A stretch of DNA of 64,000 bases from a phage: sequence record PZ452609.1; one strand, 5' to 3'. Below are positions 35,219-57,384 of the stretch, in pieces. The notes under the pieces were generated by a model, which had not been told where the DNA came from, did not search any database, and saw only the letters and a program-made list of their open reading frames with translations. The position numbers were made by a program, and so were the translations under genes. Numbering within the stretch: the stretch's first letter is position 1; every line of letters begins with the position of its first letter.

Positions 35219-35419
35219 ATGAAGATGAGAGTAAAAGACAATTTTAAAGTTATTGACCACCGTTTAGTGGAACTCTCATCTCTTTCCAATGAGGTAATGA
35301 TTGAACGTCTTAAGAGAGTTGAATCACGAAGGAAAGAGATTGCAGATGAAATTCATGAACTGGACAAGATTGAAAATGGATTGAAGGCAGAACTACAACG
35401 AAGAGGTGCTAATGTCTAA
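35219..35419 (+). CDS. hypothetical coiled-coil protein
   Basis: 66 aa. Confidence 0.3.
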   Translation: MKMRVKDNFKVIDHRLVELSSLSNEVMIERLKRVESRRKEIADEIHELDKIENGLKAELQRRGANV

Positions 35420-37397
35420 AGGTCGTAAATTGAAAGAGGCTGGTCAGTTTGTTGGTCATTGCGCATGTCCACGTTGTGGTTCATCAGATGCTGGTTCAAT
35501 CTATCATCATGACGATGATTCTTATTCAATGACTTGCTTTAGTTGTAACAAAGGTTTCCCAGAGTGGGATTTTGATAAAGGACAAATCGTGAGCACTTAT
35601 TCTACTGGTTCAGACAATAAAAACCGTACTTTCCGTGGAATGGATTTAGACGATGTAAAAGAAAACCTAGAAGCAATGGACTTGAAAGATAGGAAGATTC
35701 CTGCAAAAGTCCTTGAACGCTTAGGTATCAAGGTTGACATTGACAGTGACGGTGAAATTGATGCGCACTTCTATCCAACTTACAAACGTAATGAAGATGG
35801 TAAGCTAGAACATGTTGGCTACCGTGTTCGTCACCGTTACCCAGAAGACCATCCAAAAGAGCACCTACGTGGTAAGCTAAAAGACTTTTCAGGTGGTGTT
35901 GGAGACATTAAAGGTGAACTGGCAATGTTCGGTTCATGGATTGCTCCAGAAGGTGGTAACCGTCTATTCATCTGGGAAGGTGAGATGGAATGTGCGACAG
36001 CAATCTATATGACCTCTCTTGCGATTAAAGACAAGTCTCGTCGTAAGAATTACTGTCATGTATCTGTTCCGTCAGGTGCAAACATTAAGTCTATCAAAGA
36101 TAACTATCAGTACATCACATCATTTGATGAAATTTACTTGTGCTTTGATAACGATGAAGCAGGTGCTAAAGCTACCAAAGAGGCTGCTGGTATCTTACCT
36201 ATTGAGAAGGTTCGTTTATTCCAGTATCCAGAGGGTGTAAAAGACCTTAACGAATGGTGGACAAAGTTCTATAAAGAGAAAGACACAGTTCTGGAAGGAT
36301 TTAAGCAGCGTATCTACAACGCACCTCGTTACTGTCCTGCTGGTATCAAGAACTTTGCAGATGGTTTTGAGGCAATGAAGAATCGTGGTCAGATTCCATT
36401 GATTCCTTTCCCAGAATCTTTCGGGGATTTGAACAGACTGACTTACGGTGGTTATGGTTTGGGTGAGATTACAACTATTGCAGCACCATCTTCAGTAGGT
36501 AAGTCAGCTTACACTCGTGAGATGATTTATTCAGCTTGGAAAGAAACTGATTACAATATCGGTGTAATTCCGGTTGAAGATACCTATGAAGAGTTGATGG
36601 AGATGCTCTGTGCAATCCACCTGAGCAAGCAGATTTCTGAGATTCCTTATGACGAACGTGATTGGGATGAATTGAAGGAGGCACACGCAGAACTGTCTAA
36701 AGGTCGTCGTATCCACATCGTTGACCATCAAGGGGCAATTGACCAAGATAACTTGCTGGAATTTGTTGATTATCTGGTTAACAGTTTAGACTGCAAGATT
36801 ATTATTCTTGACCCTATTACGTTGGCTCTGTCACGTTCAGATACGGATGAAGAGGAAGTTTTATCTGAGCTATTGCGTCGTTGCAAACGCTACCAGTATG
36901 CACAAGTGAACGTCTGTCACGTTCGTAAGAGTGCAGGTGGTCAGAAGGCTAACTCTGAAGGTGGGGATATCTCTGAAGAGGATATTAAAGGCTCTGGTGC
37001 GTATTTCCAGATTTCTATGAACAACATTCTGTTAATGCGTAACAAGGTTGACCCAGACCCTGTTAAGAAAAACTTGACAAAAATCAAGCTAACTAAATGT
37101 CGTCGTCATGGTAAGTCAACGGGTATTGCTGGTCATACTTGGTACAATCCAGATACAGGACGCCTCATCAAAGCATCTGGTTGCGGAGTTGACATTGATG
37201 GTGCAGCAGAAAATATTCGCCAACAGTTTGGTATTGGTGAAGCTGAAGACCATTATGATGACTCTTTGCCTCATTATGAGGATGAAGTGTTTGACCGTGA
37301 GACTGGTGAAGTCTATACTGAAGAGCAGCGTCAAAGCTCAACGATTCCACCTGTATTAAGTGAGGATGCAGATGACTGCCCATTCGAAACTGAGTGA
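35412..37397 (+). CDS. DNA primase-helicase (T7 gp4-like)
   Basis: N-terminal Zn ribbon CPRCGSSD...CFSC, TOPRIM LCFDNDEAG, helicase Walker A APSSVGKSAYT. Confidence 0.85.
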   Translation: MSKGRKLKEAGQFVGHCACPRCGSSDAGSIYHHDDDSYSMTCFSCNKGFPEWDFDKGQIVSTYSTGSDNKNRTFRGMDLDDVKENLEAMDLKDRKIPAKVLERLGIKVDIDSDGEIDAHFYPTYKRNEDGKLEHVGYRVRHRYPEDHPKEHLRGKLKDFSGGVGDIKGELAMFGSWIAPEGGNRLFIWEGEMECATAIYMTSLAIKDKSRRKNYCHVSVPSGANIKSIKDNYQYITSFDEIYLCFDNDEAGAKATKEAAGILPIEKVRLFQYPEGVKDLNEWWTKFYKEKDTVLEGFKQRIYNAPRYCPAGIKNFADGFEAMKNRGQIPLIPFPESFGDLNRLTYGGYGLGEITTIAAPSSVGKSAYTREMIYSAWKETDYNIGVIPVEDTYEELMEMLCAIHLSKQISEIPYDERDWDELKEAHAELSKGRRIHIVDHQGAIDQDNLLEFVDYLVNSLDCKIIILDPITLALSRSDTDEEEVLSELLRRCKRYQYAQVNVCHVRKSAGGQKANSEGGDISEEDIKGSGAYFQISMNNILLMRNKVDPDPVKKNLTKIKLTKCRRHGKSTGIAGHTWYNPDTGRLIKASGCGVDIDGAAENIRQQFGIGEAEDHYDDSLPHYEDEVFDRETGEVYTEEQRQSSTIPPVLSEDADDCPFETE

Positions 37398-37467
37398 TAG
37401 TTATAAAAGAGAGGGGTTCACACCCTTCTTTGAAGAAAAAAGTTTAAATAAATTTCAGGAAGAGTGT

Positions 37468-37496
37468 TTGACAAAGGTTGATAGGTTCTATAGAAT
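37468..37496 (+). promoter_or_regulatory. sigma70-like promoter TTGACA-N17-TAGAAT
   Basis: -35 37468-73, -10 37491-96; ATG 37504 lies ~8 nt downstream (possible leaderless small ORF). Confidence 0.45.
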
Positions 37497-37649
37497 GCTC
37501 TACATGAAATGTGATGGAGGTGTTGAGGTAGAAGAAAAGTTCCACCACAGTATTATCACAGTCACTATTACTATACCTCAGCATAATATTGGTTGGCTGT
37601 TTATAATGAAAGAAAATGTGTTTGAATATCAAGTATATCGGAGAATATC

Positions 37650-37799
37650 ATGAAACACTCTAAAGCATTTGAAAAAGTTTTTGGGGATTCCTTAAAAGCC
37701 ACTGCTGGAAAACCAGCAAAGTACTATGAAGAGAAGCGTGTAAGAACTGGAAAAACTGCACGTAAAGCAGCTTCTAAAGATAAGCACAACTTCCAGTAA
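37650..37799 (+). CDS. small basic protein (49 aa, not in ORF track)
   Basis: MKHSKAFEKVFGDSLKATAGKPAKYYEEKRVRTGKTARKAASKDKHNFQ; RBS ggag; start overlaps upstream stop as ATGA. Confidence 0.3.
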   Translation: MKHSKAFEKVFGDSLKATAGKPAKYYEEKRVRTGKTARKAASKDKHNFQ

Positions 37800-37806
37800 T
37801 TAATCT

Positions 37807-37835
37807 TTGACAATAGAGTATCAACAAATTAGAAT
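37807..37835 (+). promoter_or_regulatory. sigma70-like promoter TTGACA-N17-TAGAAT upstream of SSB gene
   Basis: -35 37807-12, -10 37830-35. Confidence 0.5.
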
Positions 37836-37871
37836 TGGTACTCTTCATAAATTGAGATAGAGGTTTAAATA

Positions 37872-38729
37872 ATGTCTAAAGTTGTTAAAATGAAAGCTCC
37901 GGTAGAGAAGTACAACGGTACTGAACGTCAAACTCTGCGTTACCTGCTGAAAGATGTATGGTTTTATTACCTGAATACTTCACCACGTCCGGGAAAAGGT
38001 AAGTCTATTGATAAGAAATTCCCAGGCAAAGACTGTAACTACAGCGTTTCAATTCTGGCAGAAGATGGTAACAAGCTGTTTAAAGAGTTTACTAAGTCTA
38101 AGAAAAACCCAGAAGGTTGGGATAAAGTTACTACTGAAGCAGTTGATGCAGATGACTTCGAAGAGAAGTTTGGTTGCAAACCACCATTTGAAGCAGACAC
38201 TTACTACATCTTGAAAGTAAGTCGTGCAGCAGCTTATAAAGATGGTGCTGTATGGACAGCTAAACAGTCATTCCCTGTAATGCTGATTGAAGAAGTAAAT
38301 GGTAAGCGTGTAGCTGTTAAGCAGCCGATGAAGAAAATCAAAGCTCAAGCATCTGACAAACATGAAGATGATAAGAACTATGATGTAATTCATCCAGATA
38401 TTGCAGTTGGTAACGGTTCTTTTGGTAGCGTGATTCTTTCTACTCACTTCTACACTTTTGAGAACAATGTTCTGACAAAACCTATTCAGGAACAGTTTAT
38501 CATTGATACTCTTGTACCTTACACTGGTGGTAACGGTGCTAACGGTGAACCTGAACTGGATGAAGACGAACTGGCTATGCTTGGTCTTGATGGTGTCGAA
38601 GATAACGGTGAAATCACTGAAGAAGACGCAACAGACCATAAATCTTCGAATGATTCTGATGATGGCGATGACGAAGATTTGCCAGACCCAGATGACGAAG
38701 AAGATGAAGACTTCGATACAGAAGACTAA
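37872..38729 (+). CDS. single-stranded DNA-binding protein (putative) with acidic C-terminal tail
   Basis: 285 aa, C-terminus DSDDGDDEDLPDPDDEEDEDFDTED typical of phage SSB tails; own promoter and terminator. Confidence 0.5.
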   Translation: MSKVVKMKAPVEKYNGTERQTLRYLLKDVWFYYLNTSPRPGKGKSIDKKFPGKDCNYSVSILAEDGNKLFKEFTKSKKNPEGWDKVTTEAVDADDFEEKFGCKPPFEADTYYILKVSRAAAYKDGAVWTAKQSFPVMLIEEVNGKRVAVKQPMKKIKAQASDKHEDDKNYDVIHPDIAVGNGSFGSVILSTHFYTFENNVLTKPIQEQFIIDTLVPYTGGNGANGEPELDEDELAMLGLDGVEDNGEITEEDATDHKSSNDSDDGDDEDLPDPDDEEDEDFDTED

Positions 38730-52275: not shown

Positions 52276-54057
52276 ATGACTAAATCACTTTATGCAGTAC
52301 CAGCAGGTTTAAATGCAGATGCTTACAAATCTGGTCATGTTTACCAGTATCCTAGTGCAACAGAATACTTGATGTTCAACCTGACACCACGTAGTGATAA
52401 ATGGTTTAACAGCCCTTTAGCAATTGACGGTGTAGTGGCTTTTGGTATTCAACGTTTTGTTAAAGATTACTTGATAGACCACTGGAATGCCACTTTCTTT
52501 GAACGTGATAAAAAAGAAGCCATTGATGAAATCTTAGAAGTCATGAATGGTGTTCTGGGTAAAGATGCTATCGGTCGAGAGCATTGGGAAGCACTTCACG
52601 ACTTAGGTTATCTACCAGTTGAAGTATACGCTGTAGAAGAAGGCACAGTTGTTCCAATGCGTGTCCCGATGATTGTCTTTCAGAACACTGTTTCAGGTTT
52701 TCATTGGGTAGCAGGTTATCTGGAAGATGCTTTCTCTGCTGAAATTTGGAAGGCTTGCACCATTGCAACTATTGCATTGCATTACAAACGCATCTGTAAG
52801 AAGTGGGCTGACCTTACTTGTGACAATGACTTACATTTACCTTATCAGTGCCATGATTTTGCTATGCGTGGTATGTCCGGCTTTACTGATGACGCATTTA
52901 ACGCTGTAGGTCACTTAACCAGCTTTAAAGGGACTGATAGCTTCCCTGCTGTATACACGGCTAAACGAATCTATGGACAGTCCTACCCAATCTCTGATAT
53001 TGGTAGCTCTGTACCAGCCACTGAGCACTCTGTAATGTGTGCAAACATTGCTTGGGAAGGTGGTAATGAGTTGATTGAAGAAGAAAGACGCTTTAAAGGT
53101 GAGTTACAAACCTTCCGTCGTTTCTTAACAGAAACTTACCCAACAGGTATTGCAAGTATTGTTTCAGATACTTATAACTTCTGGAGAACTGTGTCAGAAA
53201 TCTTACCAGCACTTCGTAAAGAAATTATGGAACGTGATGGCAAACTGGTAATTCGCCCTGACTCTGGAGACCCTGTACATATTGTCACAGGTTATAAAGC
53301 AATCCACTTAGAATGTGCTAAGAAGGCTTATTACGAGCACCTAAGCAAGCTGGAAGTCAGTGACACAATGTTGAATGCTGTTCTTAACATGAAGCTTGAA
53401 AACATCAACTATGGTATTGCTGGATGGCTACTGTCAGAAGGCTACGAAATGGTTGTTGACAGAGAAGACTTTGAAGTTGCTGATACAGTGATGTTGAAGA
53501 ACGCTTATATGGTTGGTTCTGCAAACGTTGTAACACGCCCTGTAGCAGAGATTGATGGAGCTATTAAGACCTTGTATAACATCTTTGGAGGAACTATCAA
53601 CTCTAAAGGTTTTAAGGTACTGGATGAGCACATTGGACTTATCTATGGCGACTCTATCACGTTGGAACGTGCAAACGAAATCCTGAAGCGTCTGTATGAA
53701 ATGGGGTTTGCAAGCTCTAACGTGGTGTTTGGTGTAGGCTCTTACACTTACCAGTACATGACTCGTGACACCTTTGCATTTGCTGTCAAAGCAACTCTTG
53801 CAAGCATTGGTGGCAAAGAGATTATGCTTGCAAAAGACCCTAAAACAGATAGTGGTGTTAAGAAATCTGCCTTTGGTGGTGTAGCACCTATGTGGGATGG
53901 TGAGAATTTGAAAGCTGTAGATGGCTATGGATTCCAGAGCTTTGCAGATGCACTTGAACATCCAGCTTGTGCTTTACGTTTAGTCTTTAGCGACTCTGAG
54001 CAGTACGGTTACACAACTCTTGGTGATATTCGAAATAATATTGACAAGCAGCTTTAA
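52276..54057 (+). CDS. nadV: nicotinamide phosphoribosyltransferase-like enzyme (Nampt/NadV family)
   Basis: 593 aa; family assignment by overall similarity of pattern (e.g. VSDTYNFW) and by pairing with Prs-like gene. Confidence 0.6.
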   Translation: MTKSLYAVPAGLNADAYKSGHVYQYPSATEYLMFNLTPRSDKWFNSPLAIDGVVAFGIQRFVKDYLIDHWNATFFERDKKEAIDEILEVMNGVLGKDAIGREHWEALHDLGYLPVEVYAVEEGTVVPMRVPMIVFQNTVSGFHWVAGYLEDAFSAEIWKACTIATIALHYKRICKKWADLTCDNDLHLPYQCHDFAMRGMSGFTDDAFNAVGHLTSFKGTDSFPAVYTAKRIYGQSYPISDIGSSVPATEHSVMCANIAWEGGNELIEEERRFKGELQTFRRFLTETYPTGIASIVSDTYNFWRTVSEILPALRKEIMERDGKLVIRPDSGDPVHIVTGYKAIHLECAKKAYYEHLSKLEVSDTMLNAVLNMKLENINYGIAGWLLSEGYEMVVDREDFEVADTVMLKNAYMVGSANVVTRPVAEIDGAIKTLYNIFGGTINSKGFKVLDEHIGLIYGDSITLERANEILKRLYEMGFASSNVVFGVGSYTYQYMTRDTFAFAVKATLASIGGKEIMLAKDPKTDSGVKKSAFGGVAPMWDGENLKAVDGYGFQSFADALEHPACALRLVFSDSEQYGYTTLGDIRNNIDKQL

Positions 54058-54069
54058 AAGTATATGATA

Positions 54070-54094
54070 AGAGGCTCCTACGGGAGCCTTTTTA
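54070..54094 (+). terminator. intrinsic terminator (aggctcc-UACG-ggagcct + TTTT)
   Basis: perfect stem and T-run. Confidence 0.65.
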
Positions 54095-54110
54095 ATTTCT
54101 GGAGAATGCT

Positions 54111-57354: not shown

Positions 57355-57384
57355 TTGACAAGGGGCTTTGAAGCCCCTTAGAAT
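57355..57384 (+). promoter_or_regulatory. promoter TTGACA-N18-TAGAAT with hairpin in spacer
   Basis: -35 57355-60, spacer is aggggct-ttga-agcccct palindrome, -10 tagaat 57379-84. Confidence 0.45.

Follow-up and report, generated by a model that had tools for sequence, protein, structure and literature searches.

Two catalogued small genes follow the primase/helicase of a Felixounavirus phage, the first with a candidate promoter inside its coding sequence

What lies immediately behind the DNA primase/helicase gene of a Felixounavirus phage? The window analysed here is the whole 64,000-nucleotide (nt) stretch of phage DNA in sequence record PZ452609.1. At positions 37468–37799 a first-pass annotation, made from the letters alone, had placed a promoter-driven pair of unannotated small open reading frames (ORFs), the first possibly leaderless. 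We find an ordinary, already catalogued pair of hypothetical genes, here called gene A and gene B, with a candidate coding-embedded promoter besides. The explanation that best covers the whole, and that we hold with good confidence, is that the stretch is the tail end of the Felixounavirus string of replication genes, where two annotated small genes follow the primase/helicase gene. The features of the pair are the following, with their basis in brackets:

37362–37366, plus strand: Shine-Dalgarno sequence GAGGA of gene A, 5 nt before ATG 37372 (sequence, conservation)
37372–37653, plus strand: gene A, a neutral 93-amino-acid (aa) protein of isoelectric point (pI) 6.9, equivalent to wV8 gp109, Felix01p246 and phrog_4982 (annotation, PHROG family, conservation, structure model)
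37468–37496, plus strand: candidate sigma-70-like promoter, TTGACA-N17-TAGAAT, inside gene A at codons 33–42 (11 of 12 consensus matches, conservation)
37504–37506, plus strand: internal ATG, Met45 of gene A, the leaderless start proposed at first pass (sequence)
37640–37644, plus strand: Shine-Dalgarno sequence GGAGA of gene B, 5 nt before ATG 37650 and within the end of gene A (sequence)
37650–37653, plus strand: ATGA, the gene B start overlapping the gene A stop (TGA 37651–37653) (sequence)
37650–37799, plus strand: gene B, a 49-aa protein of pI 10.2 and net charge about +9, equivalent to wV8 gp110, Felix01p245 and phrog_4424 (PHROG family, selection, conservation)

By its sequence, the phage is a Felixounavirus. 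The 1.5 kilobases (kb) around the site match Escherichia coli O157 typing phage 1 at 99.4% identity, have 259 related records, and share 93–98% identity with upwards of 200 further Felixounavirus genomes, among them wV8, VpaE1, relatives of Felix O1, and UAB_Phi87. For the evolutionary comparisons, 28 distinct 2.5-kb loci were aligned, 21 from Felixounavirus and 7 from other genera.

How long is the first gene? Several elements were read correctly at first pass: the TTGACA-N17-TAGAAT motif and the ATG about 8 nt beyond it are present, the frame from that ATG is open to a stop ending at 37653, and ATGA joins it to the ORF at 37650–37799. The first ORF, given as 50 aa, is 49 codons plus the stop. 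Its frame is also open upstream, to ATG 37372 (93 aa) or to GTG 37360 (37360–37653, 97 aa), and ATG 37504 is thus internal codon 45 of a longer ORF. A coding sequence (CDS) of 92–97 aa is annotated at this place in wV8, typing phage 1, Michonne, Sf14, HP1 (Mooglevirus), phiSUSP1 (Suspvirus) and Pectobacterium phage Wc4-1. In all seven relatives, this CDS opens 26–29 nt ahead of the primase/helicase stop and runs as far as the start codon of the small basic ORF. Neither ORF of the pair is therefore unannotated: both are CDSs in these seven phages and belong to PHROG families. Typing phage 1 names them FDI04_gp053 and gp054, the relatives' annotations all read "hypothetical protein", and Felix01p246 and p245 are cited in the UAB_Phi87 table (PMC4837284).

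The translated 93-aa product matches phrog_4982 from end to end (expectation value E=1.6e-50, residues 1–93 on profile positions 1–92 of 92), and the short form from ATG 37504 covers only positions 45–92. The position that goes with this family, after primase/helicase, overlapping its end and with gene B next, was found in all seven relatives; in Wc4-1 the gene, of 97 aa, similarly overlaps the end of the primase gene. The Shine-Dalgarno sequence GAGGA (GAAGA in phiSUSP1) is kept across the aligned genera, and a ribosome-binding site (RBS) is annotated at the equivalent place in Michonne. The frame is open over 92–97 codons in five lineages at a synonymous divergence (dS) above 1, with 66–72% nt identity and with insertions and deletions only in multiples of three. 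Fifteen invariant residues, scored over 82 full-length homologues and a 39-sequence alignment, span both halves of the protein (M1, L7, G15, P18, F28, E31, C32, L33, F39 and L43 in the first; F77, F84, E85, Y86 and R90 in the second).

An AlphaFold2 model built on the 39-sequence alignment gives one compact domain (predicted local distance difference test score, pLDDT, 79; predicted template modelling score, pTM, 0.70), in which a long helix (residues 25–46) packs against a four-stranded sheet (52–90). The helix is encoded by the portion that had been taken for promoter and leader, and the "50-aa ORF" amounts to the sheet half. Foldseek returned no match to the model better than E=0.1 in the PDB, and in BFVD only orthologues and the homologue from phage Wc4 (E=1e-3). 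Scans of Pfam, NCBIfam and PADLOC, none of them an anti-defence library, gave no hidden Markov model (HMM) match for either gene A or gene B. On sequence and model together, gene A is the long, 93-aa form. The supposed free-standing gene is the C-terminal half of this conserved gene, and its ATG is not conserved beyond Felixounavirus.

Could the long ORF instead be an annotation artefact, and 37398–37649 a non-coding regulatory region composed of a hairpin, a promoter and a 5′ untranslated region (UTR) ahead of gene B? The ratio of non-synonymous to synonymous change (dN/dS) in gene A is high for a gene (0.30–0.56 in the 28-locus alignment), several natural variants carry stops or frameshifts, and a hairpin of −13 kcal/mol lies just 3′ of the primase stop, with −16.3 kcal/mol (z=−3.75) in Michonne. 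That ratio is nevertheless clearly below 1, the Shine-Dalgarno sequence and ATG at 37362–37374 are conserved, and a non-coding region would leave unexplained the frame held open in five lineages, the indels in threes, the 15 invariant residues and the confident single-domain model. Moreover, pairs of the hairpin are broken without compensation in Felixounavirus variants, and the putative 150-nt UTR folds no better than its shuffles (z=+0.22). We regard a non-coding origin as very improbable.

The hairpin itself (37408–37431, gene A codons 13–20, z=−2.1) is probably a by-product of the codons for E-G-F-x-P-F. It was considered as a terminator or processing site and rejected, because it has no U-tract and because of the uncompensated pair breaks. 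Two other readings of the region were also set aside. An Rfam scan of 37200–38000 gave only a sub-threshold match to the S15 leader (17.5 bits against a gathering score of 39.5), taken as chance. On the minus strand, where a gene was considered, 64–67 codons lie open in three genera and not in Wc4-1; substitutions follow the plus frame.

Gene A is coding but under relaxed selection, and it varies very unevenly along its length: within the genus, 52% of the codons of the C-terminal half (37504–37649) vary non-synonymously, and the N-terminal part is more conserved. Clustered at 90% identity, database proteins fall into about 65 clusters for gene A as against seven for gene B. The change in diversity is abrupt at 37503/37504: the 60-mer 37444–37503 occurs in 215 phage records, all at 90% identity or more, and the next 60-mer in only 94. 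The Felixounavirus alleles, in turn, form few haplotype classes, for example ...YMKCDGGVEVEEKFHHSIITVTITIP... versus ...LMKCDGEVEVKEDFHQSMITVIIALP.... The sharp boundary and the haplotype classes suggest that 37504–37649 is a recombining hypervariable cassette.

Two observations count against this account of gene A. First, it is interrupted in 3 of the 21 Felixounavirus loci, all three from IMG/VR: L022 has lost 1 nt from the A-run at about 37421–37426, which shifts the frame, L023 a TAG at codon 52, and L030 a TAA at codon 81. Second, several truncated database variants exist (P0099–P0103). Some of the interruptions may be assembly errors. Taken together, the interrupted loci and truncated variants suggest that gene A is dispensable.

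The second ORF was well described at first pass: it has 49 aa, is highly basic and carries its own RBS, GGAGA. The sequence ATCGGAG upstream of it and its ATG are invariant, the former in every aligned genus. Its product matches phrog_4424 over the full length (E=7.4e-36, residues 1–49 on profile positions 1–49 of 49), with 80–84% aa identity across genera. Three comparisons gave dN/dS values of 0.04, 0.13 and 0.10, and variable sites at codon positions 1/2/3 number 1/0/6 within Felixounavirus and 6/6/20 in the other genera. Gene B is a real gene under strong purifying selection. Its homologues were confined to Ounavirinae-like phages: word-indexed protein searches returned only proteins of such phages, for gene A as well, and an exhaustive HMMER profile search with gene B against 1.84 billion representatives gave only two short orthologues and two repetitive spurious matches. 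The AlphaFold2 model of gene B, three short helices, is of low confidence (pLDDT 69, pTM 0.31). A role in host takeover or anti-defence, proposed at first pass for a small basic protein, fits gene B poorly, because gene B is the slow-evolving member of the pair and ranks with the most conserved genes of the locus (dN/dS 0.04–0.13); the fast-evolving partner is the neutral 93-aa protein.

The stop of gene A overlaps the start of gene B, an arrangement that may allow translational coupling. Across three genera, the annotations of wV8, typing phage 1, Michonne, phiSUSP1, Sf14 and HP1 show this 4-nt overlap; Wc4-1 has a 2-nt gap in its place. Wc4-1 nonetheless keeps the whole arrangement of primase/helicase, 97-aa gene, 46-aa gene, promoter and 281-aa gene. 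Gene A would start, by its own Shine-Dalgarno sequence, within the terminal 26 nt of primase/helicase, and gene B at the ATGA overlap with its own GGAGA. Given the overlap and the GGAGA, ribosomes terminating on gene A could reinitiate on gene B, or fresh ribosomes could load there. Both genes are presumably transcribed at least by read-through from the primase/helicase unit.

A homologue of gene B also occurs in a distant metagenomic phage (locus L007, 2215–2641; Logan contig SRR26282644_116395). It has 46 aa and 72% identity, overlaps an unrelated upstream 97-aa ORF by 8 nt, and is followed by an unrelated 272-aa ORF, with exonuclease-like, DNA ligase and Dam genes in the surroundings. We considered the 97-aa ORF as a relative of gene A and rejected it (17–18% identity), and the 272-aa gene as a homologue of the 285-aa gene that follows gene B in our window, with which it has no detectable similarity. 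The context of this locus indicates that the small basic gene travels with replication genes even where its neighbours have been replaced.

Is the motif inside gene A a promoter? The claim of a promoter-driven pair stands in part: a near-consensus sigma-70 motif is present, and it lies inside coding sequence, not before the pair. TTGACA (37468–37473) and TAGAAT (37491–37496) stand 17 nt apart, in agreement with the sigma-70 consensus and spacer. Within the 64 kb there are two exact copies of TTGACA-N17-TAGAAT, at 37468 and 37807, and four occurrences with at most one mismatch against 0.86 expected. Sites matching at least 11 of 12 consensus positions number seven in the window, against 2.1 expected under a first-order Markov null; four are intergenic before genes, including 37807, and three intragenic. 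Three intragenic sites are about the number expected by chance, so that the motif alone is no proof of a promoter.

TTGAC and the −10 bases T, A and T are present in 28 of 28 aligned sequences, from three genera and one further clade, and four features emerged: (i) the third position of codon 40, which supplies the first T of the −10, does not change although the encoded residue may be Y, G, C or A; (ii) TTG, which makes up only 16% of the leucine codons in the phage, is yet kept in every lineage; (iii) codons 19–43 of gene A, 25 consecutive codons comprising the motif and the A/T-rich stretch before it, show zero synonymous variation among the 21 Felixounavirus sequences, such variation reappearing from codon 44, at the predicted start site, with dS within the genus at 0.05 for 37399–37503 versus 0.25–0.26 on either side; and (iv) randomisation of synonymous codons produced a motif this good in 1.2% of Felixounavirus trials (P=0.012). 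Judged on such sequence patterns, the proposal that 37468–37496 is a functional internal promoter has a chance only a little below even. Such a secondary promoter would add transcripts for gene B and the genes downstream.

The competing explanation, to which we likewise concede nearly an even chance, is that TTGACA-N17-TAGAAT has no promoter function: it would follow from the way an AT-rich genome encodes the conserved residues ECLT...F.RM, and genes A and B would be transcribed from upstream promoters only. Several observations favour it and weigh against the promoter. The −35 encodes the invariant E-C-L-T and overlaps C32-L33-T34, so that selection on the protein accounts for part of the conservation, and position 6 of the −10 is dictated by a Met/Val codon, whose second base must be T. 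Chance would give two to three such sites, and the window has two other intragenic ones of equal quality, at 2589 and 59025. The randomisation P for each clade outside Felixounavirus is only 0.08–0.12, and the clades are not independent. Synonymous variation is low in gene B, too, and over codons 1–13 of the 285-aa gene; the effect may thus be regional. Finally, Wc4-1 lacks the motif and has kept only the intergenic promoter. What a by-product of codons does not readily account for is the retention of the rare TTG and of the codon 40 third-position T despite amino-acid changes, the 25-codon run ending at the predicted start site, and the sharp divergence boundary at 37503/37504 over the 215 records.

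The published record also gives the internal promoter little encouragement. A literature search found no transcription-start-site or RNA sequencing study of any Ounavirinae phage, and the reverse-transcription polymerase chain reaction series of the Felix O1 paper leaves out these two ORFs (PMC3185647). That paper predicts a promoter at a different site, "P102", inside the primase gene (PMC3185647). The equivalent of "P102" in our window is TTGACC-N17-TATACT at 37291–37319, in primase/helicase, and the stronger motif at 37468 goes unmentioned in the paper (PMC3185647). The promoter table of UAB_Phi87 does not list the 37468 site either.

If the promoter fires, where would the transcript begin? 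Seven bases (GCTCTAC) separate the −10 from ATG 37504, and A37504 is a purine 8 nt after the −10. A pyrimidine-purine step 7–8 nt after the −10 is the preferred start position of E. coli RNA polymerase; with such a step at C37503/A37504, A37504 would be the likely start, giving a transcript that begins with 5′-AUG. In Felixounavirus, then, a leaderless mRNA could yield a 49-aa C-terminal isoform of gene A and then gene B, in addition to the full 93-aa product. The 11/12 motif with its optimal 17-nt spacer would suit this, and so would three differences between Felixounavirus and Mooglevirus/Suspvirus that all go in the same direction (TTGACT to TTGACA, TAAAGT to TAGAAT, and codon 45 from AAC to ATG). 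Of 67 Felixounavirus protein clusters, 66 have Met at codon 45, though codon 44 is hypervariable, and the frameshift in L022 destroys the N-terminal half and spares the frame of ATG 37504.

Orthologues of other genera tell against an independent gene or isoform here, since they do not conserve the start codon: codon 45 is Asn in 16 of 16 clusters from other genera (AAC in Michonne, Sf14, HP1 and phiSUSP1, that is, Mooglevirus and Suspvirus), and Wc4-1 has no counterpart of the ATG. In the model, the 49-aa fragment is without the helix that covers the sheet, and it probably would not fold alone. The nonsense mutations of L023 and L030 lie downstream of 37504, so that the short form is no better protected from them than the long one. 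On balance we consider the leaderless isoform unlikely. The fuller scenario, in which Felixounavirus sharpened the promoter to near-consensus and an ATG arose at its start site, giving two products and a boosted basic protein, with the hypervariable half expressed independently against a host target, seems to us quite unlikely.

The neighbouring features of the locus are the following:

35406–37397, plus strand: DNA primase/helicase gene, context (ORF list; so annotated in wV8 and typing phage 1)
37807–37835, plus strand: second TTGACA-N17-TAGAAT, intergenic, 36 nt before the 285-aa gene (exact match, conservation)
37872–38729, plus strand: 285-aa gene, context (ORF list; downstream neighbour in every Ounavirinae phage examined)

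The second copy of the motif is likely the promoter of the 285-aa gene. TTGACA at this site is invariant in 28 of 28 aligned Ounavirinae loci, and the Wc4-1 equivalent is TTGACA-N17-TAACAT with an extended −10 TG (L038, 3134–3162). On sequence grounds, this putative promoter is much better supported than the internal motif at 37468.

Two further promoter-like sites were seen elsewhere in the window. At 57355–57384, TTGACA-N18-TAGAAT stands intergenically before a 369-aa ORF, and its spacer is occupied by a perfect 6-bp hairpin (GGGGCT-TTGA-AGCCCC). At 54041–54100, TTGACA-N16-TATGAT straddles the end of a 593-aa ORF and is immediately followed by a terminator-like hairpin, GGCTCCTACGGGAGCC, with a T-run, so that a promoter-like motif and a terminator lie back to back.

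The local gene order is deoxynucleoside monophosphate kinase, a small ORF, DNA primase/helicase, the two small ORFs, the 285-aa gene, a terminator and an exonuclease. Gene A begins, in another frame, within the final 26 nt of the primase/helicase gene, whose 3′ end has a dN/dS of 0.02–0.04. The 285-aa protein is phrog_3877 and is conserved (dN/dS 0.02–0.11); scans of Pfam, PDB sequences, NCBIfam and PADLOC gave no significant match for it. A terminator is annotated 3′ of its gene in wV8 and corresponds to t104 in the Felix O1 list (PMC3185647). Its C-terminal ~53 residues form an extremely acidic tail with a net charge of about −26 and the terminus ...DEEDEDFDTED. The C-terminal tail of primase/helicase is acidic as well, with a charge of about −17 over the last ~55 residues.

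What might the two small proteins do? Gene B would be a conserved accessory of the replication module, most likely binding nucleic acid or the very acidic tails at the C termini of the products of its two neighbours, primase/helicase and the 285-aa gene. Gene A is probably a dispensable, fast-evolving accessory, whose variable sheet would contact a variable partner.

As it stands, the pair matters little, being two catalogued hypothetical genes of a well-sampled genus. The 49-aa basic protein, which belongs to the Ounavirinae replication module, is under strong constraint and limited to this lineage, and makes a reasonable target for knockout or pull-down. The 93-aa protein appears as an accessory that evolves fast and is apparently dispensable, its hypervariable half having a sharp boundary, and the motif as a testable candidate for a promoter embedded in codons. 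If the internal promoter and the leaderless isoform were real, they would make a tidy case of dual coding, protein and promoter at once, and of isoform generation in a virulent phage. Even then they would be a variation on known themes.

How does the locus compare with those themes? Intragenic secondary sigma-70 promoters are a general class in compact phage operons. The motif resembles them in its near-consensus −35 and −10, its 17-nt spacer, and its position within the upstream gene, where it is placed for the next one; it differs in being a candidate that is conserved in only part of the subfamily. The model for a leaderless start is the lambda cI mRNA from PRM, which begins at the A of the AUG. 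The geometry is alike, with the AUG 8 nt after the −10 hexamer; here, however, the AUG is an internal codon of a longer gene, is genus-specific, and would open a predicted partial-domain product.

The T7-type replisome proteins, gp4 helicase-primase and the single-stranded DNA-binding protein gp2.5, have acidic C-terminal tails. Similarly, the primase/helicase and 285-aa proteins end in acidic tails, with a basic 49-aa gene between theirs; in contrast, the 285-aa protein has no detectable sequence similarity to solved structures or Pfam families. T7 is not known to have a counterpart of the 49-aa protein, and an interaction between the basic protein and the acidic tails is a conjecture. The Felix O1 primase/helicase, for its part, has T7 gp4-like homologues (PMC3185647).

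The catalogued counterparts of the pair are those of Felix O1 and wV8. Gene A (Felix01p246; wV8 gp109, WV8_gp110, YP_002922892) has 96% aa identity to wV8, at the same position and with the same 26-nt overlap with primase/helicase, and differs from the gp109 family only by allelic variation in its hypervariable C-terminal half. The gene B of Mooglevirus and Suspvirus has 45 aa, without the last four residues. With wV8 (Felix01p245; wV8 gp110, WV8_gp111, YP_002922893), gene B shares 100% aa identity, the same ATGA overlap and the same RBS.

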